Assembly (NCBI GenBank): GCA_943356415.1
Contig: CALREW010000001.1
Span: forward strand, 223,900 to 287,899
Source of the DNA: Candidatus Nomurabacteria bacterium
GTDB lineage: Bacteria; Patescibacteriota; Minisyncoccia; Phycocordibacterales; SBAW01
Direction of reading: 5' to 3'
Length of the DNA stretch: 64,000 nt
Shown here: positions 8,672 through 30,900 of the stretch, in pieces
Numbering within the stretch: position 1 is the stretch's first letter
Layout: each line of letters starts with the position of its first letter
Made by a program: the position numbers and the translations under genes
The notes under the pieces: model-generated
Databases searched by the model: none
Told to the model about the DNA's origin: nothing
The model's input: the letters and a program-made list of their open reading frames with translations, nothing else

Positions 8672-8694
8672 CACGGTCGAAGAGGCAATGGAAC

Positions 8695-8732: not shown

Positions 8733-8831
8733 TAAATAAAATTGAAGTACTGAAACGAAAACCCCCCCGCCCGTGCGCTTGCGCGCTAGGCGAGGGGTTT
8801 CCCGTTTACGCGGTCGGGACCGCTTCCTACT

Positions 8832-9221
8832 TCAGGCTTCGCCGGCGATGCGATCGAGCGTGCCGAGCGCGGTGACCGTGGTGCGATCGCCCTTGCAGTC
8901 GCAGGCCAGCTCATGGACGTCGCCCTCGGTGAGGTGCGCCGCATCCATCGTGTCGCCGATCGTGTTCGGCACATCCTTGACGGCGCCCAACGCGTGCGCG
9001 GCCATCGCGACCGACTCGAGCGCCGAGCCACGCACCGGAAGAGCACGCAGTTCATCGAGCTCCAGCGTCTCGCCGAGGCTGATGGACTTCAGCTTGCTGA
9101 ACCCCGGGAACTTGATCCGGATGGCAGCGGCAGCCGCAGCGGCGATTTCCTGCTTCGTGACTTCCTTCGGGATGAAGCTGGTAGCGCCGGCCAGCGGCCG
9201 GGTAGCGAGTTTGGTCGTCAT
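8832..9221 (-). CDS. hypothetical protein (130 aa, G+C-rich)
   Basis: ATG 6 nt after AGGAGA. The longer ORF (to 9437) runs into AT-rich DNA and is less likely. No family recognised. Confidence 0.4.
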   Translation of the reverse strand: MTTKLATRPLAGATSFIPKEVTKQEIAAAAAAAIRIKFPGFSKLKSISLGETLELDELRALPVRGSALESVAMAAHALGAVKDVPNTIGDTMDAAHLTEGDVHELACDCKGDRTTVTALGTLDRIAGEA

Positions 9222-10005: not shown

Positions 10006-10127
10006 AGTTATTTACGTGGTACGCATTTTATAGCTCTGCTATAGTGCCCCTCGGAGAGGCTTGCGTAGGTGGCCTAGGACATAAAACGCGTTCGTGCGTA
10101 ACAACTGGAAACGACTGAGAGGACGTT

Positions 10128-11438: not shown

Positions 11439-11467
11439 TCGAAGCGCCAACCCAAACAAGGGCACGG

Positions 11468-11500
11468 CCCTCCTGCGCAAGCGGGAGGGCCGGGTTCTTT
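11468..11500. terminator. bidirectional terminator (purD / glucokinase convergent)
   Basis: ccctcc tgcgcaagc gggaggg followed by a T-tract. Confidence 0.5.
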
Positions 11501-13389: not shown

Positions 13390-13393
13390 GTGA

Positions 13394-14311
13394 TTAGACG
13401 AACAAGAACGCAACGCCGATGACAATGCAGATAACTCCTACAAGCTTGTGCGGAAATTTGTGAGGATGTATCTCGCCGTGAAAGATATCCGGAAATACAT
13501 TGCCGAAAACGTATGCAAACGCTAAGAGAAAGACAAATTGAAGTCCTGAGAGCGCGTTTACGATGGAGACTGAACCAAGTTGTATTGCAAAGAGGACAAG
13601 CGCGAAAGCAACACCCGCAAGTACTTTGTTAAACACCACCACTGACCGCAGGCCTTTCGACGAGCTGTGGTAACCACGATGTATGGCCGCCCACGTACCA
13701 GGGAGTGCGAGTAGCAAAAGTGCCCCGACAACATTGGCCATGCGTGTCCAAAAAAATCCATCAATAAACGACGTCTCGGCAAAAATAAGTTTTATAAGGA
13801 ATGCAGAGAGGCCGAAAAGTGCTCCACCGAGAAGCGCATAGAGAAAAGAGGGCGTCGTAAAACGAAAGTGCGAAATAAAAAGCGTACCAACAACCAAAAA
13901 GATAAAGGCCAGTACGAACGATGCAGGAAGTGGCGTATCAAGCCAGGTGTGTTCAAGGATAAACGCCATAAGCGCTGACGTTCCGCCAACAACCGGTATC
14001 ACGTCCGAGGGATTCGTGAGCTTAAGCGCCGTATAGAGCAATACGATTGAGGCAATATAAGACGCGGCCGTTAACAGTGAGAGCCCGAGCACTACATACG
14101 ATGGTATCGATATATATCCAAACGGAACCAACACCAGCACAAATCCAGACAATAGACTTACGTAAAATGCGTACACCACCGGCTTGCCGATGCCTCCACT
14201 GCGCGCAAGAACGTATTTATCAATAACAACCGTGGCTGCGTTAATAGCCTGTGCCAATACAACGAGACTCACCCATATAGCCATTGTCGATGTGAGGAAT
14301 GTCTCAGGCAT
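13394..14311 (-). CDS. DMT/EamA-like permease
   Basis: About 10 TM helices arranged as two repeated halves; no other motif. Confidence 0.45.
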   Translation of the reverse strand: MPETFLTSTMAIWVSLVVLAQAINAATVVIDKYVLARSGGIGKPVVYAFYVSLLSGFVLVLVPFGYISIPSYVVLGLSLLTAASYIASIVLLYTALKLTNPSDVIPVVGGTSALMAFILEHTWLDTPLPASFVLAFIFLVVGTLFISHFRFTTPSFLYALLGGALFGLSAFLIKLIFAETSFIDGFFWTRMANVVGALLLLALPGTWAAIHRGYHSSSKGLRSVVVFNKVLAGVAFALVLFAIQLGSVSIVNALSGLQFVFLLAFAYVFGNVFPDIFHGEIHPHKFPHKLVGVICIVIGVAFLFV

Positions 14312-14326
14312 GAGAGAAATAACGTA

Positions 14327-15508
14327 CTAAAGTGCGTTCGCGCGTGCGATGGTTTCAAACACGCGAGCAGACGCTCTTACCGTACGAGTAAGCGTAGCAT
14401 AATCTATCGCTACCAAACCAAATCGCGGCCAAAATCCTTCAGCCCATTCGTAATTATCAAGAAGCGACCAGTGTAAATACCCTCGCACATCGGCGCCGTC
14501 AGTTATTGCGCGGTGTACTGCACCAACATATCCGGTGATGTAGGAGGCGCGATGTACATCTTTACTATCGGCAAGTCCGCTTTCCGTTATGTAGATGGGC
14601 ACGTTATACCGAACAAGGCCCACACTCAATCGATAGAGCGACTCGGGGTGTATCTCCCACCCCATGTCTGAGCGAGGAGCGTCTTTGGCTGCACGCTTCC
14701 CAATGGGATGATGAAAATAATGGTTAAGACCAATAAAGTCGTGACATCCTTTGGTCTTTAAAAGAAAGCGGTGATTCCAGAACCAATCCAAAAATCCCGC
14801 CAGATACCGTGCCAATACATTTTCTGCAGGATCAAAATCAATATTATGGGTTGCGATGCCAACTTGTACGTTTGAGTTCGTCGCTTTGATAGCTCGGTAT
14901 GCGGCGACGTGCGCTTTCATAAGTGCCGACAATACACGCAGGTAGGAAATAAGGTTACGCGCAAACGGCGGAAATTTACCTTTTAAGTATCCGTCGCCCG
15001 CAAAAACTTGCGGTTCATTGATGGTCATCCAAAATTCCGCCTCGCTACCTAGTCGATCAACAACAAAGCTGCAGTACCGTGCAAACACTTGCGCGGCACC
15101 TGCATGTAAAAATCCACCTCTTTCTGAGAACCACATCGGCTGCGTAAAGTGCCACAGTGTGACAAACGGAGTTAGTCCGCGCGCTTTTAGTGCACGCAAC
15201 ACTGCGCGGTAGTGCTCAATCTCTTTTTCATCAAACTTCCCTTCTTCAGGTTCGATACGGGACCACTCTATAGAAAAACGGTGTGCGTTGTGGCCAAGAT
15301 CTTTTGCGATATCAAAATCCGATTCAAAGCGACTGTAGTGATCGCATGCACGTCCGCATAGCGGCGCTTTTCCTTGCCGTGCCGCTTCAGCCCAATCGTT
15401 GTTAGAAATACCACCTTCAACTTGGAATGAGGCGGTACTAGCGCCCCACAGAAATCCCTCCGGAAAAGAACGAACTTCTCCTATTTTTTTATTTTCCACT
15501 TCTTCCAT
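14327..15508 (-). CDS. GH1 beta-glucosidase
   Basis: FPEGFLWGASTASFQVEGG, TINEP and ITESG catalytic motifs. Confidence 0.85.
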   Translation of the reverse strand: MEEVENKKIGEVRSFPEGFLWGASTASFQVEGGISNNDWAEAARQGKAPLCGRACDHYSRFESDFDIAKDLGHNAHRFSIEWSRIEPEEGKFDEKEIEHYRAVLRALKARGLTPFVTLWHFTQPMWFSERGGFLHAGAAQVFARYCSFVVDRLGSEAEFWMTINEPQVFAGDGYLKGKFPPFARNLISYLRVLSALMKAHVAAYRAIKATNSNVQVGIATHNIDFDPAENVLARYLAGFLDWFWNHRFLLKTKGCHDFIGLNHYFHHPIGKRAAKDAPRSDMGWEIHPESLYRLSVGLVRYNVPIYITESGLADSKDVHRASYITGYVGAVHRAITDGADVRGYLHWSLLDNYEWAEGFWPRFGLVAIDYATLTRTVRASARVFETIARANAL

Positions 15509-16065
15509 TATCCGATTACAGAAAGACCACCGAGATCTTCTTTTGCGATACTTGTGTAGTTTGAATTCCGCATCAAAGCAGGAACACCATTGTCTTCAAC
15601 AATGTAGTAGGCCATGCCGTGCATCCGACGAATAGGCTCGTAGTCTGCGTGTGGCTTTGATGGATCGTTCGAAGGACTGTCGTCGATGGTTACAAGAAGG
15701 CCTGAACCGGTATTTACCAAAATATGTCCGTAGCCTATGGGCATTTCAAGAACGTCGCCTGCTTTTACGTGTACCACTCTGACATCTTCAAGTGCTTCAT
15801 CCTCCGCGCTCGCGCGTTTCTGGAACAGGGCGATTCCTTCACCTGCAAGTATCCGATACGTCTCTTTAAAGTCCCACGTATGATAGTGACCGAGCGTCTT
15901 TATATACTCACGACCCGCTCGCCCAGGCTCCCAGATAGTGACGTTTCCTTTCTCGGGTCCACCGCGGAGCATGTGATAGAAGGTCTCTGGTGCGGGAGCC
16001 TCCGGCTCAAGGAGTACCTCTTTCATAGCCTCGTGCGTGCGCGTTGAATACGGGTTTGATGTCAT
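15508..16065 (-). CDS. cupin-type glucose-6-phosphate isomerase (archaeal cPGI-like)
   Basis: T-L-G-H-Y-H...E-T-Y metal-binding motif of the cupin PGIs; about 185 aa. Confidence 0.65.
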   Translation of the reverse strand: MTSNPYSTRTHEAMKEVLLEPEAPAPETFYHMLRGGPEKGNVTIWEPGRAGREYIKTLGHYHTWDFKETYRILAGEGIALFQKRASAEDEALEDVRVVHVKAGDVLEMPIGYGHILVNTGSGLLVTIDDSPSNDPSKPHADYEPIRRMHGMAYYIVEDNGVPALMRNSNYTSIAKEDLGGLSVIG

Positions 16066-16076
16066 GGCAGAAATTA

Positions 16077-16107
16077 TACCCCGTGAGATAGGCTATCTCA
16101 TGGGGTA
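16077..16107 (-). promoter_or_regulatory. inverted repeat TACCCCGTGAGATA-ggc-TATCTCATGGGGTA overlapping the cPGI promoter
   Basis: 14-bp arms with one mismatch, 12 nt upstream of the cPGI ATG. On the sense strand the proximal arm runs into TATAAT. Confidence 0.5.
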
Positions 16108-16263
16108 TACGCCATCTACGCGCACGACGGGCATCTGCGCTCGCTCGGCATTGACATATACAAAAGGGTGTAGTACTTTGCCTCTTGCCTACGGGGCATT
16201 TTTTATGACCGTACGTGCTTGGGGAAAGACCCCAAGCTGCACACCACACTGCGAGGAAGCAAC

Positions 16264-16668
16264 GTGACCAATCAGACCCCCGGCACCGCCGGTTCGAAGA
16301 TCGCCGTCATCATCGCCAACATCAACGGCATCAAGGTTCCCACGCACAACAACAAGTCGGGCGCCCGCAAGGCCCTGCTGAGCGCCATCGGCGGCGACAA
16401 TGCCAAGCTGCTCGAGACCTCCACCAAGGTGGAGCTCGGCGAGGTCAAGACCGCCATCGGCGGCCTGCTCAGCAAGATGTACAACACGCCGGCGGCGATC
16501 GTGCGCTCCGGCATCGCCGAGGAGCCCGCGCTCTCGAACTTCCGGAAGTTCGCGATGCTGAAGGACCTCGACTTCGATCTGACCGACGAGCTCGGCTGGA
16601 TCTGGCGGGCGGCCGAGACGCCGCGCAGCGACCGCCTCGGCGACGAGCGCGCCGGCGCTCCCCGCTGA
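16264..16668 (+). CDS. hypothetical protein (134 aa, G+C-rich)
   Basis: GTG with GAGGAAG 6 nt upstream; the alternative TTG at 16219 is in AT-rich DNA. No family recognised. Confidence 0.4.
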   Translation: MTNQTPGTAGSKIAVIIANINGIKVPTHNNKSGARKALLSAIGGDNAKLLETSTKVELGEVKTAIGGLLSKMYNTPAAIVRSGIAEEPALSNFRKFAMLKDLDFDLTDELGWIWRAAETPRSDRLGDERAGAPR

Positions 16669-16749
16669 CCTGCGTCTTCGCCTCAGTGCAAGACGGGAGG
16701 GCCCTCTTCGGAGGGCCCTTTTCAGTTAAAGTGCGCTACACTTTTACCT

Positions 16750-17469
16750 ATGACACTTACCCTTATTACACTCGCAACCGTTCTCTCTACCCTCTTCGGA
16801 GGACTCTTTGCACTTAAGTTTCGCGACAAACTACACCTTATATTAGGTTTTAGCGCAGGCGCTGTTATCGGTGTCGCTTTTTTTGATCTCCTCCCTGAGG
16901 CGCTCGAACTCTCGGCAAGCTCCTATGACACATCAGTAGTAACCGGCATTGTTGCATTGGGTTTTCTTTTCTATATGGTGCTCGACCGCATTGTCACACT
17001 TCATGCGCACGACCATGACGAAGACGGTCACTCACACCGCGGCACCCTCGGCGCAGGTTCGTTCGCACTCCACAGCTTTCTTGACGGCATCGCCATCGGT
17101 CTCGCCTTCCAAGTATCAGCTGCTGTTGGTGTTGTCGTTGCCGTAGCGGTGTTGGTGCACGATTTTTCAGACGGCATTAACACCGTGAGCGCCATATTGC
17201 GAAGCGGCGGCACAAAAGCGCGCGCATTTGGTTGGCTCATTGCCGGTGCCATGGCTCCCGTCCTCGGCGTCATTGCAACCCGTTTCTTTATGCTCAACAC
17301 AGGCACTCTCGGACTGGTACTCGCAAGCTTCTGTGGATTCTTTCTCTATATAGGAGCGTCCGACCTTCTCCCAGAGAGCCACCACCAGCATCCAACATGG
17401 CTAACAAGTGGCATGACCCTCCTTGGCGTAGGGGCACTCTACGTAGCCATCACGCTTACTGGCATATAA
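16750..17469 (+). CDS. ZIP-family metal transporter
   Basis: HDFSDGI..., HHQH, a His-rich loop (HAHDHDEDGHSH) and 8 TM helices. Confidence 0.75.
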   Translation: MTLTLITLATVLSTLFGGLFALKFRDKLHLILGFSAGAVIGVAFFDLLPEALELSASSYDTSVVTGIVALGFLFYMVLDRIVTLHAHDHDEDGHSHRGTLGAGSFALHSFLDGIAIGLAFQVSAAVGVVVAVAVLVHDFSDGINTVSAILRSGGTKARAFGWLIAGAMAPVLGVIATRFFMLNTGTLGLVLASFCGFFLYIGASDLLPESHHQHPTWLTSGMTLLGVGALYVAITLTGI

Positions 17470-17536
17470 AACTTGCACGTTTTTCAAGCGGTGTTTTGAT
17501 AAAGGAAGCAGTATCACGTAGCCGGGGGAACATATT

Positions 17537-17797
17537 ATGTCGCTTCGCCTGCAGCTCAGGGACTACCGTCTCACGACGGCGGAAATCCTGTACTTCATGC
17601 TCGACCACCGTCACCTCCTGCAGACGTACATCTGGCAGGAACTCGACATCGCGCCTCGATTCCCTGTTCTGACGAAATTCCTGGATTTCTGGCAGAACAA
17701 TCTCGATGGCAAGCTCTTCGAGGTGAAGGTCGCAAGCGCCGGGCTCATCCAGCCCGCCGAATTCAAGTATGCGGAGATGCTCCGCACGCTCCACTGA
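17537..17797 (+). CDS. Usg-family protein
   Basis: YRLTTAEILYFMLDH..LLQTYIWQ..D.AP.FP.L..FL.FW...L.G matches the Usg family (PF06233) as recalled from memory. G+C-rich. Confidence 0.5.
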   Translation: MSLRLQLRDYRLTTAEILYFMLDHRHLLQTYIWQELDIAPRFPVLTKFLDFWQNNLDGKLFEVKVASAGLIQPAEFKYAEMLRTLH

Positions 17798-17842
17798 CCA
17801 CTTCCACGCGCCCCCGCAAACTGCTGCGGGGGCGAGGCGCTT

Positions 17843-19060
17843 TTAGGACTGCATTTTCTTCATAACGATAAAAAGGGTCGCCCAAGAACAAACAATAAGG
17901 GTCGAGCCAATAAGAAGCGGCGCTTGTATGCCGAGCACACTTGAACCGACCCCAGCGATAAGCGGCGCGAGTCCTTGCGAGAGCGCTAAGAGCGAGCCGT
18001 TTATGCCGAGCGCTGCTCCCTGCTTTTGTGGAGATACTCCTTTACTCACCAGCGCCGTCATATTTGCCATCGTGAGGCCGTTGCCGATAGCAACAAGCGG
18101 CAACACCATATACATCAAAGCGAGCGTCGGGATAAACGGATAGAGCGCGAGGCCAGAGGCAACCATCAACATCGAGACGCGCAATATTTGCTTCTCATGA
18201 AAACGTCGCGTGAGTAGGCGCAAAATGACCAACTGCGTAAAGACAATAAAAATGCCGGAGGTGGCAAAAAATGTTCCGACTCCGGCTTCAGAGAGGTGGA
18301 ACTTTGCAACAACGAGCACTCCTATAAATGAGGTAAAGAACGAAAAGCCTGCAAGAAAAAGAAAGCTCGTGAGGTATACCAAGCGCGCGTCAACATCGGT
18401 GAGTGCCGCACGGATATTGTGTATGCCTTTGAGCCATGTAAATGCGTGCGCTTCCCTTCTGTTGTGATGCGTTTCTGGCAAAAAAAGCGAAACGGAAATG
18501 ACGTTAAAAATGCCGAGAATACCCGCGACGTAAAATGGAGAAGCCGCGACGCCGGTAAGTGCCGATATCCATCCACCAAGAAGCGGTCCGAGAATAAAAC
18601 CGATCCCAAAAGCTGCACCAATAAGACCAAAATTCTTTGCTCGATCTTTCGGGTCAGTAACATCCGCAATGGTCGCCTGCGCGATGGCAAAGTTTCCACC
18701 AGCAAGCCCTGCAACCATGCGGCTGATAAATATAAGGGCAAGCGAACCTATCGTTATTGAAAAGGCAAACAACAAGTTTGAAAGCGCTAATACGGCAACA
18801 CCTACGGTGAGAAGTTTTTTGCGTCCATACACATCGGAAAGCTCACCAAGTATCGGCGCCGCGATAAATTGCATAAACCCAAAGACCGAAACAATGAGTC
18901 CCGCAAGCAAAAGTTGCATGCTCGTCGAATACCCCTGGAGTAAAAATGCAGGAGACGACGGTTCAGTAAAGAGAACAGGGATGAGAGGAAAAATCATCCC
19001 AAACCCGATCATGTCGATAAGGAGTGTGCCGAAAAGTATTGGTATTGCTCGTTTTGCCAT
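17843..19060 (-). CDS. MFS transporter (drug:H+ antiporter-like)
   Basis: 12 TM helices; the G.LSD..GRK motif between TM2 and TM3. Confidence 0.75.
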
Positions 19061-19138
19061 TCGTGCAGTTTAGCAGAAACGTTCGCGGGCCGGCCTCTCG
19101 TGGAGGCCGGCCCGTTTCGAACATGGTTGGTCCGTGGG

Positions 19139-20131
19139 CTACATGCCCATGAACTCGCGTTGGAATGTGGCGAGTGGCATCTGCGTGAGCCGCTCGAAGA
19201 TGGTGTGGTAGAGGCCCGTGGTCTGCGCGAGCACGTCCTTGGGCACGTACTGCTCGCGTACCCATGCGTAGTCGGCGTTCACCTCAGGCTTCCTGCGCTG
19301 GATGCCGAGCGTGCGCCCCCAGGTGCGGACGAACTCCTTGTCGTGGGACTTCGGTGTCCGGCCCTCACGCAGTGCGAGGTTCCAGTCGGTCTCGTCCCAG
19401 AAGCGGCTCGAGTCCGGCGTCAGATATTCATCGCCGAGAACAAGACGACGATCCTTGTCATAGCCGAACTCGAACTTCGTGTCGGCGATGATGACCTGGC
19501 GAAGCGCAGCGTGTATCCGGCCGACCTTGTAGATCTCCCATGCGAGATCACCGAGCTCGCCGCCGTACTTCTCGTCGACCGACTGCGCCGTGATGTGCTC
19601 GTCGTGACCCACCGTGACCTTGGTCGTCGGTGTGAAGAGCGGATTGTCGAACTGCGACCCATCCACCAGACCAGGAGGAAGCGAATGGCCGCACAACAGG
19701 TGCTTCGGCGCCGTTTCCTTGTAGGCGGTGAGTCCCGAGCCCGTGAGATAACCCCGGATGATGCACTCGACCGGGATCATCTCGAGCTTGCGGACGACGA
19801 CCGCGCGTGCGTGAAGGTCGCCCTTGTTGAGCTGGGCCTTCGGGAGATACTTGTCGATCTCAGCGCCTGCGGCGACGAAATCGGTCAGCACACCGTTGGG
19901 GTTCAGGAGAGCCTTGTCCCAGAAGACCTTGAGCGCCGTCAGGATTTCGCCCTTGTCGCGCACAAAATCCCCGAGCACGAAGTCGAAGATCGAGATGCGG
20001 TCGCTCGCGACAACCAGCATGAGGTCGTCGTGTCCCGGCAGTTCGTAGCTGTCGCGGACCTTACCACGATTCAACAGCTTGAGGCCGGGAACCTTCGGAC
20101 CGAACGTTGTCATGTCCACCATGAACTTCCC
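19139..20131 (-). CDS. purC: SAICAR synthetase, long form
   Basis: GKVRDSY, DRIS.FD, PVECI.RGY, KFEFG and LGDE.LTPDSSRFW. Start uncertain (20113, 20131 or 20215). G+C-rich. Confidence 0.8.
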   Translation of the reverse strand, partial: GKFMVDMTTFGPKVPGLKLLNRGKVRDSYELPGHDDLMLVVASDRISIFDFVLGDFVRDKGEILTALKVFWDKALLNPNGVLTDFVAAGAEIDKYLPKAQLNKGDLHARAVVVRKLEMIPVECIIRGYLTGSGLTAYKETAPKHLLCGHSLPPGLVDGSQFDNPLFTPTTKVTVGHDEHITAQSVDEKYGGELGDLAWEIYKVGRIHAALRQVIIADTKFEFGYDKDRRLVLGDEYLTPDSSRFWDETDWNLALREGRTPKSHDKEFVRTWGRTLGIQRRKPEVNADYAWVREQYVPKDVLAQTTGLYHTIFERLTQMPLATFQREFMGM

Positions 20132-20272
20132 CATTACACAGTATTGATGCTGCACACCCTGCAGCTGGTACATACAACCCACTGGTGAGCCTAAACAACC
20201 AGTGCCAAATTGCAAACGAAAACGCCGGCCCCCGAATGCAGAGGGCCGGCGTCGTATTTCAGGCGGCGAGGT

Positions 20273-21691
20273 CTAGACCTCGCCGCGGGCGATCGCGGGG
20301 GCGATGCCGATGTAATTGAGCGGCGTGATGCGCATGATTTCCGCCTTCACGCCGTCGTTAACGTCGAGCGTGGCCACGAAGGACCGGAGGTCGTCGAGGC
20401 TCACCGCCTTCCCACGCGCCACATCCTTGAGGATGTTGTAGGCACCGCCGACGCCTTCGCGCCGGAGGATGACCTGGATCGCCTCGGTGATGACCTCGGG
20501 GTGTTCCCAGAGCGCCTTGGCCATGGCCTCAGCATTCGGGGACGACTTACCGAGACCACGCATGACCGCCTTGTAGGCGATCAGGCTCCAGCCGAACGCG
20601 ATGCCGAAGTTGCGCATCACAGTGGAGTCCGAGAGATCGCGCTGGAGGCGCGACTTGGTGAGCTTGCGGGCGAAGAGTTCAAACAGCGCGTTCGCGAGCT
20701 CGAGGTTGCCTTCCCCATTCTCCCAGTCGATCGGGTTGACCTTGTGGGGCATGGCAGACGATCCCGACTCACTCGCCACAGCGCGCTGCGTGATCCAGCC
20801 GTCGCTGATGTAGCGCCACGTATCCTGCGCCAGATCTTCGACGATGTTGTTGATGCGGATCATCACCTGGAACAGCTCGGCATAGCTGTCGTGCGGTTCG
20901 ATCTGCGTGGTGTAGTGGTTTGCCACGATAACCGGATCGCTCGACGTGAAGCGGCTGAGCGTCGCGATGAAGCTCGATGCAAACTTCGGCCAGTCCACGT
21001 TCGGAAACGCAACGAACTCTGCGTTGTGGTTGCCAGTGGCACCGGAGAACTTGGCGTCTATGGTAACCCGGTACAGCTTGTTGAGCTCCCGTTCGAGGCG
21101 TTCCTTGAACACGCGCATTTCCTTGCCGAACGTCGTTGGCGACGCCGACTGACCGTGCGTGCGTGCGAGCATCGGAAGCTCCGCATGCTCGACCGAGAGT
21201 TTCTCGAGCGTGTCGTTTAGCTCGAAGAGCTGCGGCAGAATGACCTTCGAGATGGCATCGCACAGCATGAGCGCGTACGCGCAGCTGTTGATGTCCTCGG
21301 AGGTACGGCCGAAGTGTAGCCACGGCAACAGGTCCGCCATCGAGGTCTGCCGCAGCTTCATCTGAAGCCAGAGCTCGACGGACTGCACGTCGTGGTTTGT
21401 GGGGCCGAGCTTCATCTCGCCGTCCACATAGCCTTTGCGTTCGATTTGCTGAATGACGATGGCGTCGTCGAGCGAGAAATCGGCCACGAGCTTGTCGAGG
21501 AATTCCGCCTCGCTTTCGGTGAGCGGACGCACCGGCACCCCGGGGAAATCCGCGAGATGCTCGATGAACGCGACCTTGACGGTCACGCGATACCGCACGA
21601 GCGCGCCTTCGCTCATGCGCTGCGCTAGAGCTGCGACCGCCTTTGCATAGCGCCCGTCAACCGACGAGAGCCTCTCCAGTGGATGTGCCAT
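20273..21691 (-). CDS. purB: adenylosuccinate lyase
   Basis: SPVDGRY N-terminus, HFG.TSEDIN and THGQ.A.PTT.GKE signature; 472 aa. G+C-rich, with its own terminator. Confidence 0.85.
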   Translation of the reverse strand: MAHPLERLSSVDGRYAKAVAALAQRMSEGALVRYRVTVKVAFIEHLADFPGVPVRPLTESEAEFLDKLVADFSLDDAIVIQQIERKGYVDGEMKLGPTNHDVQSVELWLQMKLRQTSMADLLPWLHFGRTSEDINSCAYALMLCDAISKVILPQLFELNDTLEKLSVEHAELPMLARTHGQSASPTTFGKEMRVFKERLERELNKLYRVTIDAKFSGATGNHNAEFVAFPNVDWPKFASSFIATLSRFTSSDPVIVANHYTTQIEPHDSYAELFQVMIRINNIVEDLAQDTWRYISDGWITQRAVASESGSSAMPHKVNPIDWENGEGNLELANALFELFARKLTKSRLQRDLSDSTVMRNFGIAFGWSLIAYKAVMRGLGKSSPNAEAMAKALWEHPEVITEAIQVILRREGVGGAYNILKDVARGKAVSLDDLRSFVATLDVNDGVKAEIMRITPLNYIGIAPAIARGEV

Positions 21692-21944
21692 CTCTTAACC
21701 CTCTTCCTTCTTCAAAAAACGTTGTATCCCTTGCTCCATAAACGCGGAGCAACCAAACGGACTCTACTAGAGTCCAACGAACAAGTCTAGACAAACCTTT
21801 AGTTTAATTTCATATTGTCCTTATGCGGCATATATACCGCGGTATGGATACGGGCTGTACGCCTTCGATCGTCAAGATCGAGGCGCTTGCCTATGTCTAT
21901 AGCCGTGGTGTTTTGCAAAGCTAATCTCCTACGCACAGGAAGCT

Positions 21945-21990
21945 CTCGAAACCCCTCGGCTGGATGCGAAGCCGAGGGGTTTTCGTTTCC
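21945..21990 (+). terminator. hairpin plus T-tract inside the purB/GNAT divergent leader
   Basis: aaacccctcggc tggatgcga agccgaggggtttt cgtttcc. Confidence 0.4.
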
Positions 21991-22026
21991 AGCATGACTG
22001 ATCCTTAACAAGAGAAGGCCAAACCG

Positions 22027-22641
22027 ATGAGCAAGCGTATCAACCGCGTGGTTTTCAAAGACCACCCGAAGTCGAAAGTATTTCTCTCGCCTATCGAGAT
22101 GGGCGACGTCGATCGCTACTACGCGTGGACCAACGACCACGACGTAACTCGCTTCCTGATGATCCGCTTCCCCACCACACGCAAGCAGGAAGAGACCTGG
22201 TGTGCGGGGTCAGCGGCCAGTGCCCAACTGGAGAACATCGTGTTGGCGATTATCGAGAAGAAAGGGGGCACACACATCGGAAGCATCGGGTTGCATCGCA
22301 TCAGTTGGGGCAACCGTTCGGCAACAACGGGTGCGATGATCGGCGACAAACGCTTCTGGGGTGCAGGCTACGGCAGCCACGCCAAAGTGCTCCTGTTGAA
22401 GTACGCCTTCGACGAACTCGGGCTGCACTCCATTGAGTCCCGGGTAGCCGCCTTCAATGGCCGGAGCGCTGCCTACAACAAGAAGTGCGGCTACCTCGAA
22501 GTTGGTCGCATGCCGGAGCGGACATTCCGCGACGGAAAATTCCACGACGAAATCGTCATGGAGACACGGCCCACATTGTTCCGTCCTATCTGGAAGAGTT
22601 TCGAGGCCGGCACGTTCGGACCCTCGAAGCGCAAGAAATAG
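22027..22641 (+). CDS. GNAT N-acetyltransferase (RimJ/RimL-like)
   Basis: Acetyl-CoA-binding fold (IGSIGLHRI...R/Q..G.G.G..A). G+C-rich. Confidence 0.65.
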   Translation: MSKRINRVVFKDHPKSKVFLSPIEMGDVDRYYAWTNDHDVTRFLMIRFPTTRKQEETWCAGSAASAQLENIVLAIIEKKGGTHIGSIGLHRISWGNRSATTGAMIGDKRFWGAGYGSHAKVLLLKYAFDELGLHSIESRVAAFNGRSAAYNKKCGYLEVGRMPERTFRDGKFHDEIVMETRPTLFRPIWKSFEAGTFGPSKRKK

Positions 22642-22762
22642 CTTCGTACGAAAATGATGGACGCCCCCGCGACTGCGGGGGCGTTTTCATTTGAACTAAC
22701 CCTACTAAAAAGTCTGAGGGCCCGGCGGTGAAGCCGGGCCCTCGAACCTCTCGAGTCTAAGA

Positions 22763-23839
22763 CTAGCTGTGCAGCGGGACTGGCACCAGCTCGTTGTGGA
22801 GAACCTCCGGCGATCGGCCGCCACGGCCCGGGCGGATCATGGTGAGGCGGACCGCAAGCAGCTGAGGGCCCTCCGCCCTCCACGCTTCAACGATCCTCAA
22901 CGCCCGCTTGATGGCGTTGTCGATCGCTTCCTTCTCCGTCATGATCTTGCTCGTCCACTCGCCTTCGGAGCCAGGCCAGTTGAACGTGTACGTCGCGCCG
23001 TTGATCGAATCAGCGCGGAGCGACGTCATCTTCCACGGATGAGCGCCGATCTCGCAGAGCCGCCCTTCAAGTTCACGAGCAGGCTGCGCGAACGTCCGCA
23101 TAGCCCACTCGGTGTATTTCGAAACCAACTCCCATTCCAGCACGCGCTCACCTTCGATACCAACGGCGTTGACGATGCGTGCGACGCCAGCGAGGGCATC
23201 GTGCCGCACCGCCAAGTCTTTGGCGAACGCGACTGTTGCCGTATCGCAGACGTCGTTGTGAACATCTGCCTTTGAGAGCTCAACCATCGCGAGCATCATC
23301 CGAGCGCGGCGTGATGGATCCGCACGGAAGTTATTGTCGCGGATGAGCCGCGAGATGAGCTCGTGATGGACCACTTGGTCGGCGCACTTAGCCGCTTCCA
23401 CCAGAAAACGGCAGAGCTCGTCGGCTTCGGCCTCGTCTTCACTCTCCGCCCACCGACGCACGACGAGCGTGAGCAGCTTTTCGCGTGTTTTCAAATGGGG
23501 CGACTTGTTGTCCGAAGGCAGGAGCGTGTAGATCTCCATGATCTCCTTGAGCTGCTCCACCCTAACGGCGACCATCATCTGTTCCGCCGGCTGACGCGCC
23601 TTACGACCAGCTTCGCGGTTCTTCTCGTAGATCGCAGCCAGCAAGTAGCCAACGTGCCCCGAAATGATCCCGTCGACTTTCTTGTCCTCCGCGTCAGAGA
23701 CGTCTTGCGCGGCCAGCCCGAGGACGATCTCGCGGAGCCGCACGACACGCTCCTCGTGCGAGAGCTCCTTGAGCGCCAGCCACGTTACGCCATCAAGTGG
23801 GTTGAAGATTTCGTCCAACCGCTTCAGGTGGTCCTTCAT
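22763..23839 (-). CDS. hypothetical protein (358 aa, G+C-rich)
   Basis: ATG 7 nt after GGAGA. Predicted mostly helical N-terminal part and a mixed C-terminal part. No family recognised. Confidence 0.45.
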   Translation of the reverse strand: MKDHLKRLDEIFNPLDGVTWLALKELSHEERVVRLREIVLGLAAQDVSDAEDKKVDGIISGHVGYLLAAIYEKNREAGRKARQPAEQMMVAVRVEQLKEIMEIYTLLPSDNKSPHLKTREKLLTLVVRRWAESEDEAEADELCRFLVEAAKCADQVVHHELISRLIRDNNFRADPSRRARMMLAMVELSKADVHNDVCDTATVAFAKDLAVRHDALAGVARIVNAVGIEGERVLEWELVSKYTEWAMRTFAQPARELEGRLCEIGAHPWKMTSLRADSINGATYTFNWPGSEGEWTSKIMTEKEAIDNAIKRALRIVEAWRAEGPQLLAVRLTMIRPGRGGRSPEVLHNELVPVPLHS

Positions 23840-24057
23840 TTCACGTCTCCTCTGTGACCGTAGCCACGGTAGCCTTATCCCCGTAGGGCAAGGTGGCAGT
23901 GGGGCATATCCCTTCTGCCAACGAAAGCACAAGCGCTTCCGGCAACACTGTACAACGCTAGTTTAACTTCGTCAAAACATATTTTTATCCTGACCATTCC
24001 ATACCTCTCTGGTATAGTCGACTTCGGAAAGGCGCTCATATAGAGCGGACGGGAAAC

Positions 24058-25155
24058 ATGGGCAAGGCCATTGGCATCCTCGGCGGTGGCCAGCTTGGCC
24101 GCATGACCGCCGCGGCCGCTGCGAAGCTCGGCGTCAAGACGGTCGTCTACTGCAAGAGCGAGGAGGAATGCGGGACGTTCATCGCGTGGAAGAAAATCAT
24201 CGCGGACTATGACAACGAGAAGGCGCTCCTCGAGTTCGCAAGCCTCGTCGACGTCATCACCTGCGAATGGGAAAGCGTCGACAAGCGCACGCTCGAGTTT
24301 CTCGAGCGTCTCGGACGCAAGCCCGTGAACCCAAGCTCGCTTGTCTTCGCTACGGCGCAAGACCGGCTGCTCGAGAAGAGGGCTGCCCAAGCGGTGGGTA
24401 TGGAGACGGCGAAATTCTGGGCGTTTCAAACCCCCCAGGAGCTCCATGACGCTGGCTTCTTTGTCGGCTTCCCCGCCATCATGAAGACCCGCTTCGGCGG
24501 CTACGACGGCAAGGGACAGCGGCGTGTGAAAAGCGTCGAAGAAGCCCGACGCGCATGGGAAGAACTCGGGCACGTCCCCTGCATCCTCGAAGCATTCGTC
24601 AACTTCAAGCACGAGGCGTCCATCATGGTCTACCGCAACAGTCGCGGCAAGACCGGCTGCTTCCCCATGGTGGTCAACACGCATGAGAACGGCATCCTCC
24701 GACAGACATTGTTCCACCAAGAAGCGTTCGGTGGAGCACCGTTCTGGACGAAGCATGAACAAGGGCCGAAGCGGCTCGCCGAGCAACTGAAACTCGTTGG
24801 TCTCACCTGTGTGGAGCTTTTCTTCACACAAGACGAGAAGTTCATTTTCAACGAGATGGCTCCGCGGCCGCACAACAGCTACCACTGGACAATCGAAGGC
24901 TGCAACGTCAGCCAGTTCGAGCAGCTGGTCCGCATCCTCGCAGATCTGCCGCTCGTCGAGCCGTACAGTCCGTTTCGTTCGGTCACTATGACCAACCTAC
25001 TCGGACACGAAGCTGACAAGAGCGTGCCAGCGCTTCTGAGCCTGCCTAAAGTTTCGGTGACGCTGTACGACAAGCCTCACCGAGATCCAAAGCCCGGTGA
25101 ACCGCCTCGCAAACGCGGGCACTGGGTCGCCGTCGAGCCGTATCATCGTCACTGA
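24058..25155 (+). CDS. purK: N5-carboxyaminoimidazole ribonucleotide synthase
   Basis: IGILGGGQLGRM N-terminus and ATP-grasp core; 365 aa. G+C-rich. Confidence 0.75.
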   Translation: MGKAIGILGGGQLGRMTAAAAAKLGVKTVVYCKSEEECGTFIAWKKIIADYDNEKALLEFASLVDVITCEWESVDKRTLEFLERLGRKPVNPSSLVFATAQDRLLEKRAAQAVGMETAKFWAFQTPQELHDAGFFVGFPAIMKTRFGGYDGKGQRRVKSVEEARRAWEELGHVPCILEAFVNFKHEASIMVYRNSRGKTGCFPMVVNTHENGILRQTLFHQEAFGGAPFWTKHEQGPKRLAEQLKLVGLTCVELFFTQDEKFIFNEMAPRPHNSYHWTIEGCNVSQFEQLVRILADLPLVEPYSPFRSVTMTNLLGHEADKSVPALLSLPKVSVTLYDKPHRDPKPGEPPRKRGHWVAVEPYHRH

Positions 25156-25224
25156 GGCTCCGACCTATCGCAACGAAAGGCCGCCCGTCTGGGCGGCCTT
25201 TTCGCGTGGTATAGACTAATTCGT

Positions 25225-26289
25225 ATGCAACAGTTTTCTCTCTACCACCACAACACCTTATGCTGGCAGGCCATTACTTCGGCACTTGAGTCGGCAACGC
25301 AGACCATAGACATCGAACATTTTATTTTCAAACAAGGTGGCATCGGTGACGAGCTGCTTTCTATCCTGTATCGCAAAGCAGCTGCGGGTGTGAAAGTACG
25401 TTTATTGCTCGACGCTATCGGCAGCGATGAGCTTGCGGTAAGCAATCTTGTAGCAAGGTGCACGGATGCAGGTATCGAGCTGCGTTTTTTTAACTCCATC
25501 ATTCCCCTCCGACTCAGTCACCACACGCCTATTTTCTTCCGCGATCACCAAAAGCTTATCGTGGTAGACAAGCGCACCGGCCTCACTGGCGGCGTGTGTA
25601 TCGACGAGCGCATGCGCGCGTGGCGCGACACGCTTATCATTTTTGAAGGAGCCGCTGTTTCTGATATGCAGCGAGCGTTTGACTGCATGTGGAAGATTGC
25701 CCACAAAGAAATGCGCCTACGTGACATGCCGAAATATAAAGTGGCGCCCGAACAATATCTTCTCGATATTCCCTTCTCTCTGCGACGCCCTGCCTACCGC
25801 GCACTTCGTCGAGCCATTCGTGCTGCAAAACGATATATCTACCTTGAAACCCCATACTTTGTTCCGCCGCATCTTTTGGTGAGACTCCTCAAAAGCGCGC
25901 GACGCAGAGGAGTAGACGTGCGTCTTATCCTTCCGGAGCGCTCAGATGCGAGCATCGCCGACCTCGCGGCTGAGAGCTATTTTGAAAATCTGCTCACCGC
26001 CGGCGTACGCATCTATCGCTACATACCTTCAACCTTACACGCCAAGATAGCAGTTATCGATGGCTCGTTTTCTATGCTCGGAAGCCACAACCTCGACCAC
26101 CTCAGTTTCCAATACAACTTCGAAGGAAGTCTCATTTCAAACGATAGCGCGCTGGCAAAAGTACTTACCGAACAACTTACGGTGGATATGGCGCACAGTT
26201 CCGAGTTGCAGTTTGCGCAGTGGTATAAACGCGGCTATGTCGCTCGTTTTATGGAAACGCTTATCTGGCCGCTCAGTTTTTTGATGTAA
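25225..26289 (+). CDS. phospholipase D-family protein (cardiolipin synthase-like)
   Basis: Two HKD motifs (HQKLIVVD..., HAKIAVID...GSHNLD). Confidence 0.75.
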   Translation: MQQFSLYHHNTLCWQAITSALESATQTIDIEHFIFKQGGIGDELLSILYRKAAAGVKVRLLLDAIGSDELAVSNLVARCTDAGIELRFFNSIIPLRLSHHTPIFFRDHQKLIVVDKRTGLTGGVCIDERMRAWRDTLIIFEGAAVSDMQRAFDCMWKIAHKEMRLRDMPKYKVAPEQYLLDIPFSLRRPAYRALRRAIRAAKRYIYLETPYFVPPHLLVRLLKSARRRGVDVRLILPERSDASIADLAAESYFENLLTAGVRIYRYIPSTLHAKIAVIDGSFSMLGSHNLDHLSFQYNFEGSLISNDSALAKVLTEQLTVDMAHSSELQFAQWYKRGYVARFMETLIWPLSFLM

Positions 26290-26333
26290 GAGTAACGATC
26301 ACCAGTAGGGTCCTGGCGCGTTAGACTATATAT

Positions 26334-26870
26334 ATGAAAGCAACAATCGCTATTGCCCTTGTTCTAGTGCTGCTCGCCGGAGGCGCCTATTGGTATATGC
26401 ATAAAGCGGCAACGGCAAAAAGTATTGCAAAAATAAGTTCATTTGAGGAATGCGGAGCCCTCTATCCAGTGATGGAAAGCTACCCGCCAAGATGTGCCAC
26501 TCCAGATGGTCGCTCCTTTACGCAAGACGTTGGAAACGAGCTTTCAAAAATGGACCTCATCACCATAGACGCACCACGTCCTACGGCCAAAATCTCTTCA
26601 CCGCTTACCGTCACTGGGAAAGCTCGCGGCACCTGGTATTTCGAAGCGAGCTTTCCCGTTGAACTTCAAGACGCGCAAGGAAATGTGATTGTTCAAACTC
26701 ATGCCGAAGCACAAAGTGACTGGATGACTGAAGACTTTGTGCCATACAAACTCACTCTCACCTTCCCCACACAACCAGCAGGGAGTCACGGCAAACTTAT
26801 CTTGCGCAAAGACAACCCATCGGGCGACCCTGCCAAAGATGACTCGCTTGTTGTTCCCGTTGTTTTCTAA
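26334..26870 (+). CDS. Gmad2 immunoglobulin-like domain protein
   Basis: N-terminal TM/signal anchor; GKARGTWYFEASFPVELQDAQGNVI pattern. Confidence 0.55.
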   Translation: MKATIAIALVLVLLAGGAYWYMHKAATAKSIAKISSFEECGALYPVMESYPPRCATPDGRSFTQDVGNELSKMDLITIDAPRPTAKISSPLTVTGKARGTWYFEASFPVELQDAQGNVIVQTHAEAQSDWMTEDFVPYKLTLTFPTQPAGSHGKLILRKDNPSGDPAKDDSLVVPVVF

Positions 26871-26955
26871 GCAGAGTTATCCACAGCCTACGTTTTCTCA
26901 AAAAATAAAGGACATCTCGTAAAGAGATGTCCTTTATTTGTCCTTTACGACGCCT

Positions 26956-27492
26956 CTAGTTACCGTCTGGGCGCACCTGCCCTTCTGTTTTTGCCGAAAC
27001 ATCGAGCTTGAGGCTCTCTGCCCTCCACCCAATGGCATTGGCAATAAGCTGCATAACGTTACCTACCGCTGCAATGGCAAGGACCAAAATGAGGTACCAA
27101 GAGAACGCAAAGGCGTAATAGGCGAAAACAACGACGAGTGTCGCCCACATACCCGTACACCACGGACACTGAAGAAGGTCCGAAATAGTCCTCAGTGGTC
27201 CCCCGGGGTACGCAGAGCGCTCTACATAGACCCTTCCATCGTCTCCAAGGAGCTCTCGACTTCGCAAAAAGCTATCTCGTAAGAACTGGGTAATCTTGTC
27301 GTACACCACCAAACGGGTGATGCGGAAAATGGCGAGTGAAATCAAAGCAAAGTCTGCCAGGGGTATGTAGCGCGGTATGACCCGGTAGGCCGCATAGAAG
27401 TACCAAAGCGAAAGCCCAAGAAGAACGGCAAAAAGAGCGGAAAAGATGAGGTTCCAAAAATTCTGATCGTCCTTTGGGCGAATGGTATTCAT
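26956..27492 (-). CDS. DUF1360 membrane protein
   Basis: LADFALISLAIFRITRLVVYDKIT ... CPWCTGMWA signature. Confidence 0.55.
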   Translation of the reverse strand: MNTIRPKDDQNFWNLIFSALFAVLLGLSLWYFYAAYRVIPRYIPLADFALISLAIFRITRLVVYDKITQFLRDSFLRSRELLGDDGRVYVERSAYPGGPLRTISDLLQCPWCTGMWATLVVVFAYYAFAFSWYLILVLAIAAVGNVMQLIANAIGWRAESLKLDVSAKTEGQVRPDGN

Positions 27493-27962
27493 ACAAAAAG
27501 CTTACTGCGTTACGGTTTTGAGTGCTAGCGCTACAGGTTTGCGAAAACCGAACACCGGTAACCAAAACCGAGCTGAAGTGGGACAAAACCAACGTCGCAC
27601 AACACGTTTTTTATAGCAAAGTGGGAGGACTTGACCACTTATCTCTTTGTGTGTCCCTAAAAACGCCTGTTTTTAAACCTATTTTAAAGAGAAACCGTAA
27701 AAAATATTGACTCTCGCTCACAATAGTTACCTTGTGCCCATTTTTTACTTATCAACAAGGCAAAAATGGCCGTTGTTGACGATAATAGACGTCCGACCGA
27801 AACACGCGAAAAATGGCCAGAATGCTATACTTTAGACACATCCAACCGTTCCATTCAGACACCTTTTTTACGCTTTCCAACTACAAGAGAAAACGTCCTT
27901 GTACGTGAGAAAAATCGTTCAAGCACGCGCAAAAAATCACTACCAGCGAAACGAACAGCTAC

Positions 27963-30900
27963 ATGCCACTCACGCAGAAAATAAAAAAGCGCAACGGTGA
28001 AATCGCTGATTTCCATCGTGAAAAAATCGCCATCGCAATAAGCAAAGCGTTTCTTTCTGTTCTTCGCGATCCACACACTGAAGAGTCTGCCGCAATCGGT
28101 CGCACGGTGATTGAAGCGATCGAGCGCAAGTACGGTGAGAACCCGTCCATCATTCCTTCGGTTGAAGATATTCAAGACCTCGTAGAAAACGCACTCATGA
28201 GTCGTGGGTACTTTGCGGTTGCAAAGCACTACATCATCTATCGATACGAACATCAGAAAGAACGCGAGGCACGCAAAGAAGAAGTAAAACAACTTATCGC
28301 AACGCGTCAGTTGTCGGTGCGCAAGCGTGACGGACGCACGGAAGCATTTTCTTTGGAAAAAGTTCGTACGTCGCTCATGTTCGCGGTCGCCGGACAATCC
28401 GGCATCGACATCGACACGCTCGTGCGCCAAGTTGAAATGGAAGTGTTCGACGGTATCGAAACAAAAGACATCACGCGCACCCTCATCATGGTGACGCGTT
28501 CGATGATCGAAATTGAACCGGGCTACTCCAAAGTTGCAGCACGCCTCCTTCTCTCTTCTATTAATGGAGAGACTATGGGGCATGGCTTTGACTACACGCA
28601 GTTCGATGCACTCTATCGCCAAGCGTTTATTGCAAACGTCCGCAAAGCAGTTGAGTTGAAGAAGCTCGATCCAGAGCTTCTTACCTTTGATCTTGAAGCT
28701 ATCGCTAAGATGCTACGCCCGGAACGCGATGACAACCTGCTCTATCTCGGTCTACAAACCCTCGCCGACCGCTACTTTGTACGTGTGTCAGATAAAGGAG
28801 CGCTTCTTGAGAGTCCTCAATACTTCTTTATGCGTGTGGCCATGGGACTTGCCCTCGCTGAGAAAAAGGAAGTACGTATGAAATGGACCGAGGAGTTCTA
28901 CGACGTTATGTCACAACTTCACTATGTTCCTTCTACCCCGACCCTCTTTAACGCTGGTACTCCAGTAGCCCAGCTCTCCTCTTGTTACCTCAACACGGTG
29001 ATGGATGACTTGAGCCACATATTTAAGGTATATGGCGATAACGCTCAGCTCTCCAAGTGGACGGGCGGCATCGGCACCGACTACACCAACCTCCGCGGCA
29101 CGGGCGCCCGTATTGGTTCTACGACCGGCATGACCAGCCAGGGCGTCGTTCCCTTCCTTAAGATCTCAAACGACGTCACGGTGGCTATTAACCGTTCGGG
29201 ACGCCGCCGCGGTGCCACCTGCGCATACCTCGAGACCTGGCACTACGACATCGAAGACTTCATCGAACTTCGCAAGAACACCGGTGACGAGCGCCGCCGC
29301 ACCCACGACATGAACACGGCCAACTGGGTGCCGGACCTCTTTATGAAGCGCATCCGTGAAGATGGCGAATGGACACTCTTCTCTCCTGAAGAAGTTCCTG
29401 AACTCCACCACCTCTACGGTCGCGCATTTGAAGAAGCGTACGTTGCCGCAGAAGCTCGCGCTGATCAAAAGTCGATCAAGCTCTTCAAGCGCATGAAAGC
29501 GCGTGATCTCTGGAAGAAGATGCTCACACAGCTCTTCGAGACTGGACATCCGTGGATTACGTTCAAAGATCCGTCCAACATTCGCTCTCCGCAAGATCAC
29601 GCTGGTGTCGTGCATAACTCCAACCTCTGCACCGAAATCACACTCAACACCTCTGCTGAAGAAACCGCAGTCTGCAACCTCGGTTCCGTTAACTTTGCAC
29701 GTCACATAAAGGAAGGAGCGTTCGACGGCGAGAAAGTTGCTCGCACGGTCACAACCGCGATGCGCATGCTCGACAACGTTATCGACATCAACTTCTACCC
29801 CACCAAGGAAGCAAAGACTTCCAACATGCGTCATCGCCCGGTTGGTCTTGGCATCATGGGTTTCCAAGATGCGCTCTATCAACTCGGTATCAACTTCGAC
29901 AGCAATGAATGCGTAGACTTCGCAGACCGTTCGATGGAAATCGTTTCCTACTACGCAATACTCGGCTCTTCGCAACTTGCCAAAGAACGCGGTGCGTACG
30001 AATCGTTCAAAGGTTCCAAATGGGATCGCAACATCTTCCCGGTGGACACACTCGGTCTTCTTGAGCGCGAGCGCGGTGAAGCTATCGCCACCAACCGCAC
30101 AGAGCGCCTCGACTGGAGCGTAGTGCGCGCGTCGGTCAAAGAAAACGGCATGCGAAACAGTAACTGCATGGCTATCGCTCCGACTGCAACTATCTCCAAT
30201 ATCTCTGGCTGCACCGCAACCATTGAGCCCATGTACAAAAACATCTACGTCAAATCAAACATCTCAGGAGACTTCACAGTGGTAAATCCTTACCTCATTG
30301 AGGATCTCCGCCGCCTCGGCCTTTGGGATGCGGAGATGCTGGGTAAGCTGAAGTACCACGATGGCTCCATTGCACAGATACTCGAAATACCAGAAGAGAT
30401 ACGCGCCCGCTATAAAGAGACCTTCGAAGTAGATATGCAGTGGGTCATCAACGCCGCCGCCCATCGTGGCAAGTGGATAGACCAGTCGCAGTCCCTCAAC
30501 ATTTACTTTAAAGGCCAGTCAGGCAAGGACCTCTCGGATATCTATTTCCTAGCCTGGAATATGGGCCTTAAAACGACCTATTACCTCCGTACCGTTGCCG
30601 CCTCACAGGTTGAAAAGTCTACCGTCAGCATCGCTGAACACGGCGCAACCCACCTCCGCAAAAAGGATGAATCCTCTAATTCCTCAATGCCAGCACCAGT
30701 CACCCCCGTTGTCCCAATAGCTGCTTCGTCCATTCATGCGCAGTCTCCGGTTGTTGAAGGCGTAAAGATGAGTGCCGTTGCAGCCGCTGTTGGTGTCATT
30801 GCACCTATGTCCTCGGCAGCATCTATAACCACCGCCGTTAATGCCGCAAAGGCTGTCCACGTCCCTGGTGCAGAAGCCATTGCTTCGCCTATCAAAGCTG

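Follow-up and report, generated by a model that had tools for sequence, protein, structure and literature searches.

Gene content of the purine block

The analysis covered a stretch of 64,000 nucleotides (nt) of Candidatus Nomurabacteria bacterium DNA (the window, whose positions are used for all coordinates) and was centred on a G+C-rich block at 19139-25155, which carries genes of de novo purine synthesis. The window is part of a bacterial chromosome and encodes a fused rpoB-rpoC, sigma-70, dnaG, hisS, trmD, S16, L32, RNase III, smc and class I ribonucleotide reductase. Five proteins are encoded in the block, and the gene calls and coordinates given for them in an earlier note, made by a model from the letters of the DNA, were found correct with Pfam and NCBIfam. 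On the minus strand lie purC (SAICAR synthetase; 19139-20173, 344 amino acids (aa) from the ATG at 20173, with the open frame reaching a TTG at 20215) and purB (adenylosuccinate lyase in its E. coli-type form with ASL_C domain; 20273-21691, 472 aa). These are followed by a GNAT acetyltransferase gene on the plus strand (Acetyltransf_3, RimJ/RimL/SpeG-like; 22027-22641, 204 aa), a gene for a 358-aa protein without family on the minus strand (22763-23839) and purK on the plus strand (N5-CAIR synthetase; 24058-25155, 365 aa, divergent in sequence). Domain searches agreed with the earlier note that the window holds five purine-type enzymes, as purD (GAR synthetase; 10128-11438, plus strand, 436 aa) and purJ (a stand-alone IMP cyclohydrolase domain of PurH; 8009-8671, plus strand, 220 aa) lie outside the block. 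The statement that purF, purN, purL, purM, purE and the AICAR transformylase domain are missing from the window was borne out as well, since a Pfam scan of every other sizeable open reading frame (ORF) and tblastn with a PurE sequence gave no further pur gene in the 64 kb.

Judged by their families, the five enzymes are expected to act at different steps of the pathway, as follows. PurD converts phosphoribosylamine and glycine to glycinamide ribonucleotide (GAR), and PurK carboxylates aminoimidazole ribonucleotide (AIR) to N5-carboxyaminoimidazole ribonucleotide (N5-CAIR). PurC and PurB lead from carboxyaminoimidazole ribonucleotide (CAIR) through its succinocarboxamide (SAICAR) to aminoimidazole carboxamide ribonucleotide (AICAR), PurB acting also in the synthesis of adenosine monophosphate (AMP), and PurJ turns formyl-AICAR (FAICAR) into inosine monophosphate (IMP).

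The curated thresholds of NCBIfam were taken as the same-function (equivalog) cut-offs. PurC matched SAICAR_synt (PF01259, E=2e-56) and scored 271.3 bits with NF010568 against a cut-off of 251, the best solved structure being 3r9r (179 bits). PurB, with Lyase_1 and ASL_C domains, scored 538 bits with NF006764 against a cut-off of 446, and its RTHGQ and GSSAMPHKVNP motifs were aligned and intact, 3bhg being the best solved structure (414 bits). The motifs stand for the fumarate-lyase signature and the catalytic His loop, with residue roles as in E. coli PurB. PurD showed the GARS_N, GARS_A and GARS_C domains and 349 bits with TIGR00877 against a cut-off of 288. PurK was matched by preATP-grasp (PF22660, 81 bits), by ATP-grasp (PF02222, 165 bits) and weakly by PurK_C (PF17769, 21.7 bits), and among solved structures it scored 216 bits with PurK (4e4t) and 62 bits with PurT. 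PurJ spans just positions 4-195 of the 510-position PurH model, which is its N-terminal MGS-like domain, and keeps the active-site motifs GRVKTLHP, YPF, IDIGGP and RAAAK in alignment with PurH structures, with residue roles as in ATIC/PurH. Domain scans of the window gave no purV or other AICAR transformylase. A degraded transformylase following purJ was considered and rejected, because the G+C-rich segment 8672-9363 is an opposite-strand 129-aa ORF without family.

The earlier note preferred to see in these enzymes paralogs recruited to another function. Such a function could be a specialised pathway to a modified nucleoside of the formycin or pyrazofurin type, with the GNAT acetyltransferase and the 358-aa protein as extra members. 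A stand-alone cyclohydrolase together with PurB and PurC homologues does recall the formycin cluster, and ForH (6nko, 216 aa) was matched by PurJ with 65 bits. PurJ, however, reached 127 bits with true PurH, and PurB, PurC and PurD pass the same-function models and score as ordinary orthologues. The motifs of PurB and PurJ are intact, and ORF scans of the window gave no C-glycoside synthase, no N-N bond-forming enzyme and no PurA homologue. Recruitment of this kind is therefore considered highly improbable.

Transcription units and the purB/GNAT intergenic region

Behind each of the five block genes (purB, purC, the GNAT gene, the 358-aa gene and purK) stands a separate hairpin, rich in G+C and followed by a run rich in T. 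The terminator-like hairpin of the purB/purC gap (20221-20253, minus strand) has a 13 bp stem with 10 G-C pairs before its T-rich tail. The GNAT and 358-aa genes are convergent, and the gap between them holds back-to-back terminator hairpins (22661-22684 for GNAT and 22716-22743 for the 358-aa gene, within 22661-22743). The 358-aa gene and purK are divergent and are separated by a region (23840-24057) with promoter-like sites on both strands. A terminator hairpin read from the sequence at 25179-25202 (plus strand) lies between purK and the following PLD gene, with a comparable hairpin after purK in the related locus L093, and a further one follows purD (11465-11492). As every block gene has its own terminator, no operon would link them, and judged by these hairpins the five genes are separate transcription units. 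This arrangement without an operon, in which two of the five genes are convergent, is a further point against recruitment to a common pathway.

The divergent intergenic region between purB and the GNAT gene (21692-22026, 335 nt, GC 0.48) had been described in the earlier note as a leader following purB. It is indeed AT-richer and does carry palindromes and a terminator, but it lies between the divergent starts of purB and GNAT and does not follow purB as a leader. Shuffled sequence folds far less well than this region (z=-7.0 for the plus and -4.5 for the minus strand). Two small palindromes (21731-21752 and 21759-21775) are close to the purB start. Along the plus strand, the order is a promoter-like site at 21788-21816, a long imperfect hairpin of about 80 nt (~21834-21912) and an intrinsic-terminator-like hairpin at 21948-21991, which consists of CCCCTCGGCT and AGCCGAGGGG followed by TTTTCGTTT and is placed 37 nt before the GNAT ATG. 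This last hairpin may terminate a small transcript, or it may act as a GNAT attenuator. The copy in a second strain of the species is 98% identical; both strains retain the long hairpin, and the two strain differences within a 33-codon ORF at 21823-21924 are non-synonymous. In Rfam no match reached the gathering score, 21650-22070 giving matches at chance level only (E ~1 or above), and neither the rest of the window nor the loci retrieved had a further copy of the region. A regulatory element shared by the pur genes was rejected, as the leader and palindrome are single in the window, do not stand upstream of other pur genes and belong to no riboswitch family. It is possible, though rather doubtful, that the RNA of about 170 nt encoded here is an undescribed regulatory RNA.

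The locus in a second strain and in relatives

The second strain (L002) has 97% identical DNA and the same gene order. Synonymous divergence between the two strains (12823-29327) is a mosaic, amounting to 0.03-0.07 in most genes, 0.10 in the ribonucleotide reductase large subunit and 0.17-0.34 in GPI, ZIP, Usg, GNAT, purK and Gmad2, and this pattern suggests recombination tracts.

Relatives of the PLD protein form a graded series of 69, 67, 59, 58 and 46% identity, one of them labelled Patescibacteria, and the locus was readable in three: L093 (PLD 67% identical), L090 (58%) and L091 (46%). L093 has the order GNAT, purK, PLD, without the 358-aa gene, and its GNAT protein is 77% identical to that of the window. 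L090 has a GNAT remnant followed by PLD and Gmad2, with a Usg gene nearby (59% identical to the Usg of the window over 73 aligned residues), and is without purK. In L091 which lies on a 418-kb contig, an archaeal-type IMP cyclohydrolase, PurO (PF07826; 9156-9872 of L091, minus strand), stands divergent from PLD at the position that purK has in the window. With pur genes beside PLD in L093 and L091 also, the clade has purine genes repeatedly at this locus. Both nearer relatives have a GNAT gene here, which is intact and next to purK in L093 but reduced to a remnant in L090. A metagenome scan with the alignment of the PLD clade gave no match. The best matches of the ribonucleotide reductase were largely from the Candidate Phyla Radiation (CPR), with at most 61% identity in species-representative genomes; one shares the Gmad2-reductase order, and none of the reductase relatives in these genomes had pur genes in its flanks. 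Together with the labelled PLD relative and the core genes of the window, these matches speak for a host among the Patescibacteria.

GNAT acetyltransferase and the 358-aa protein

The GNAT protein scored 92 bits with PF13302 against a gathering threshold of 25.4, no NCBIfam model reached its cut-off, and the best solved structures were 1nsl and spermidine N-acetyltransferases with at most 37 bits. The gene adjoins purK also in one related species (L093), and this adjacency is a point in favour of recruitment. Distant GNAT homologues from the metagenome scan (21 loci, 29-50% identical), however, had no pur or PLD neighbours, and a part in purine synthesis cannot be demonstrated for the protein.

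The 358-aa protein gave no match in Pfam, NCBIfam, PHROGs or PADLOC, in line with its earlier description as having no recognisable family. It matched only itself among 5.8 billion proteins and had no match in species-representative genomes. Three weak matches were obtained with HMMER among 1.8 billion representatives, the best two being proteins of about 200 aa aligned to the N-terminal half. The model built from the four sequences showed stacked helical hairpins, with a predicted local distance difference test score (pLDDT) of 80-91 for residues 20-150 that fell to about 70 by residue 190; the C-terminal third was modelled with low confidence, and the single-sequence model was poor (pLDDT 50). 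Structure prediction, which had been proposed as a check, thus gave a helical repeat and no housekeeping family. The N-terminal half (about 190 residues) is predicted from these models to be a HEAT/ARM-like helical repeat, a generic scaffold rather than an enzyme fold. An enzyme fold was considered and rejected, since the models resolve the helical repeat only and a profile search of PDB sequences was blank. A viral origin was likewise rejected, there being no PHROG or PADLOC match, no relative in IMG/VR and no significant match to viral structures. As the gene is missing from the GNAT-purK-PLD locus of L093, it looks like a lineage-specific insertion between GNAT and purK. The embedded GNAT and unknown genes had been taken as a signal of recruitment; a scaffold-like protein missing in a relative and an acetyltransferase whose homologues lack pur neighbours do not bear this out.

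Third-position G+C excess and origin of the genes

The G+C-rich block of the earlier note is real. Its G+C content is 59.4% (0.594) compared to 52.6% for the window, and 2 of 580 equal-length segments reach the block value. The earlier statement that G+C-rich genes adjoin nowhere else does not hold, because purJ and the 129-aa ORF (8009-9221) are neighbours too. The excess sits almost wholly at third codon positions (GC3): the five block genes have GC3 of 0.76-0.84, which is 4.1-5.4 standard deviations higher than the 0.52±0.06 of 34 other genes, while G+C at first and second positions (GC1 and GC2) is ordinary. Codons ending in G and in C are both raised (AAG 0.85 versus 0.47, TTC 0.88 versus 0.40), and the amino-acid composition of GC3-rich and other genes is alike.

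The GC3-rich class comprises 11 genes within 6.9-25.2 kb, and all five pur genes are members (for example purC 0.82, purB 0.835, purD 0.74 and purJ 0.85). Outside the block the class adds purJ, purD, a Usg-family gene (PF06233; 17537-17797, plus strand, 86 aa, GC3 0.81) and three ORFs without family, with GC3 of 0.74-0.95 in all. The three ORFs lie at 6943-7374 (plus strand, 143 aa, GC3 0.85), 8832-9221 (minus strand, 129 aa, GC3 0.84) and 16264-16668 (plus strand, 134 aa, GC3 0.95). They match no Pfam or NCBIfam family and are known from the two strains of this species only, with at least 90% identity; for two of them IMG/VR gave no relatives. Members of the GC3-rich class are interspersed singly with ordinary genes (SET, ROK, GH1, GPI, EamA, ZIP, MFS) over 18 kb, and the promoter-bearing spacers within the block have 48-51% G+C. 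The 155-aa SET-domain protein (7404-7871, minus strand) stands between two GC3-rich genes and has an ordinary GC3 of 0.52. Further along, the ribonucleotide reductase small subunit (31074-32108, plus strand) has GC3 of 0.73, and the large subunit just upstream (27963-30989, plus strand) 0.585. An extended -10-like motif, TGnTATAG(T/A), was seen upstream of purK (~24005-24018), purD (~10040-10048) and PLD (~25205-25213), and also upstream of the L093 purK. As it precedes GC3-rich and ordinary genes, both codon classes seem to share a promoter type. An effect of expression on GC3 was rejected, because S16 (0.53) and RpoBC (0.61) are not GC3-rich and codons ending in G and C rise together.

One explanation of this composition is that the block came in recently as an island, by a single horizontal transfer from a donor rich in G+C (an alphaproteobacterium, for instance), and has not yet become host-like; this explanation concerns the origin of the genes and not their function. 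A GC3 4-5 standard deviations above that of other genes, with G and C both raised at third positions, is what such an island would show, and the composition and the codon table of these genes are indeed deviant. The best database matches of PurK besides its strain variant are 43-45% identical and Alphaproteobacteria-like, the named ones being Alphaproteobacteria, and the closest match examined stands in a normal purE-purK proteobacterial context. PurK is also without intermediate relatives, in contrast to the graded series (69-46%) of the neighbouring PLD. Against this, the pattern is kept in L093, where GNAT (GC3 0.74) and purK (0.84) are rich and PLD (0.58) is ordinary despite saturated synonymous sites (proportion of synonymous differences 0.68-0.74). 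GNAT and purK are present at that locus and only the 358-aa gene is missing there. The deviant genes lie singly among ordinary ones, the spacers between block genes are not G+C-rich to the same degree, and even the best PurK matches are only 45% identical, leaving no close sampled donor. Searches of the window gave no tRNA and no flanking or border repeats, and no integrase, transposase or other mobility gene was found among the scanned ORFs. A recent single island is thus judged quite improbable. A single old transfer slowly drifting back was also judged unlikely, as L093 keeps the pattern across saturated synonymous divergence.

The class of genes with G- and C-ending codons is probably foreign, by old or repeated acquisition, with a purK most like that of alphaproteobacteria. 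That these genes form a long-lived second codon-usage class in a reduced genome is a tentative reading which we hold with considerable doubt. Repeated replacement from G+C-rich donors may be the cause, or else these genes as a set may be subject to selection or biased gene conversion. L090 is GC3-rich throughout. Two sharply separated codon-usage classes interleaved gene by gene are potentially the part of this locus that matters. If repeated import from hosts were true, it would show how reduced symbionts rebuild their metabolism; if selection or biased gene conversion were true, the locus would be an unusually clean natural case for what sets the synonymous composition of bacterial genes. 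Of the features described here, only the GC3-rich class and the predicted structured RNA ahead of GNAT merit further study.

Interpretation of the purine genes

The gene identities, the motifs of PurB and PurJ, the separate terminators, the gene order in relatives and the compositional class are direct results, whereas the activity of the enzymes, the completeness of the pathway and the origin of the genes are inferred. The pur genes are probably functioning housekeeping genes that serve to make purines de novo, in a bacterium with a small genome that looks like one of the Patescibacteria (CPR), the remaining steps being encoded elsewhere. Each pur gene would be a unit of its own, set between a promoter-like region upstream and an intrinsic terminator, dispersed among unrelated genes and not gathered in a pur operon. 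The genes purF, purN or purT, purL, purM and purE and the AICAR transformylase gene purV would then be found in other parts of the chromosome. About 32% of 399 CPR genomes have been reported to encode the whole pathway (PMC11608272), and because of this base rate a location of the missing genes elsewhere is favoured.

Several observations weigh against this interpretation. Six pathway steps are absent from the 64 kb, among them purE, which is needed directly after PurK; tblastn and Pfam scans gave no purE beside purK or anywhere else in the window. PurK scored just under every curated PurK cut-off (347.8 against 387, 309.3 against 326 and 301.6 against 318.4 bits), and among 5.8 billion proteins there is a gap between its 94%-identical strain variant and the next matches at 45%. 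Its identity to the PurK encoded at this locus in L093 is no more than 29-34%, which indicates that the history of purK is not simple. Each of these two proteins matches proteobacterial PurK better than the other (179 versus 108 bits for L093). Their low identity fits either a replacement or very fast divergence in both lines, and two unrelated purK genes at one locus in two species could be explained by an episymbiont whose own genes were replaced with those of its hosts. The ratio of nonsynonymous to synonymous substitution rates (dN/dS) between the window and the second strain, calculated from small counts, was 0.15 for purB, 0.16 for purK, 0.36 for purC, 0.05 for GNAT and 0.46 for the 358-aa gene. 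The values of purB, purK and purC point to purifying selection and so speak for working genes; those of purC and the 358-aa gene are relaxed, which speaks against, although they rest on only 20-30 substitutions.

The same observations bear on a different reading, in which the pathway is truly incomplete. PurD, the trio of PurK, PurC and PurB, and PurJ would have been kept while intermediates or the products of missing steps came from a host or the community, PurB being retained mainly for making AMP from IMP. Only 5 of about 11 steps are found in the 64 kb, purK has no adjoining purE, PurK is divergent and below the curated cut-offs, and the constraint on purC is relaxed. Bacteria of the CPR are, moreover, widely described as lacking nucleotide synthesis and depending on hosts (PMC12455944). 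Steps 2, 6, 7, 8 and 10 alone, however, form no usable sub-path. Both strains have intact genes under constraint, scattered pur genes are common in bacterial genomes, and roughly a third of CPR genomes reportedly have the whole pathway. We know of no case in which phosphorylated purine intermediates are exchanged between cells, and this too weighs against an incomplete pathway, which we regard as unlikely. The interpretation as working housekeeping genes is retained: the purine genes are ordinary, and nothing points to a special new pathway. The organism would add to the small-genome bacteria in which de novo purine synthesis seems to be retained, at least in part.

Other genes of the window

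Some further genes of the window were also noted. The fused rpoB and rpoC form an ORF of 2284 aa (43751-50605, minus strand) in which the complete set of Rpb2 domains precedes that of the Rpb1 domains. A NusB-NUDIX fusion protein is encoded at 60433-61380 (minus strand), an EVE-domain protein at 5979-6488 (minus strand) and an unusually short SMC of 750 aa at 57429-59681 (minus strand).

Comparison with known systems

The formycin cluster (ForA, ForB, ForC, ForH) resembles the window in having purine-enzyme homologues, including a stand-alone cyclohydrolase domain, close together. It differs in that the PurJ of the window is nearer to housekeeping PurH, the other cluster-defining enzymes are absent and the genes do not appear to be co-transcribed. 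The 358-aa protein can be compared to the HEAT/ARM alpha-solenoid repeat proteins, but it belongs to no sequence family, its likeness is to the generic fold only and its C-terminal third is not confidently modelled.

Genes and islands acquired by Patescibacteria, in which nucleotide-metabolism genes are among those gained (PMC12455944), share with the window the presence of compositionally deviant genes in a reduced genome. In the window, unlike these islands, mobility genes and borders are absent, the deviant genes are singly interleaved and the deviation persists in a relative.

The splitting of purH into purJ and purV is a described bacterial arrangement, often near purD, and the most frequent pur-gene neighbours of purJ and purV are purD and purN (PMC6486802). 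The 220-aa protein of the window corresponds to the N-terminal cyclohydrolase domain and is encoded about 1.4 kb from purD, in agreement with this arrangement; in the described systems, however, purJ is nearly always accompanied by purV or purH, while the window is without purV.

When compared to the canonical purK, purC, purB and purD of the E. coli or B. subtilis type, the genes of the window are dispersed single-gene units with a purK that has no adjacent purE, a PurK that falls below the curated cut-offs and a codon composition unlike the rest of the genome. The families and domain layouts are nevertheless the same, PurB, PurC and PurD pass the same-function models, and the catalytic motifs checked in PurB are kept.

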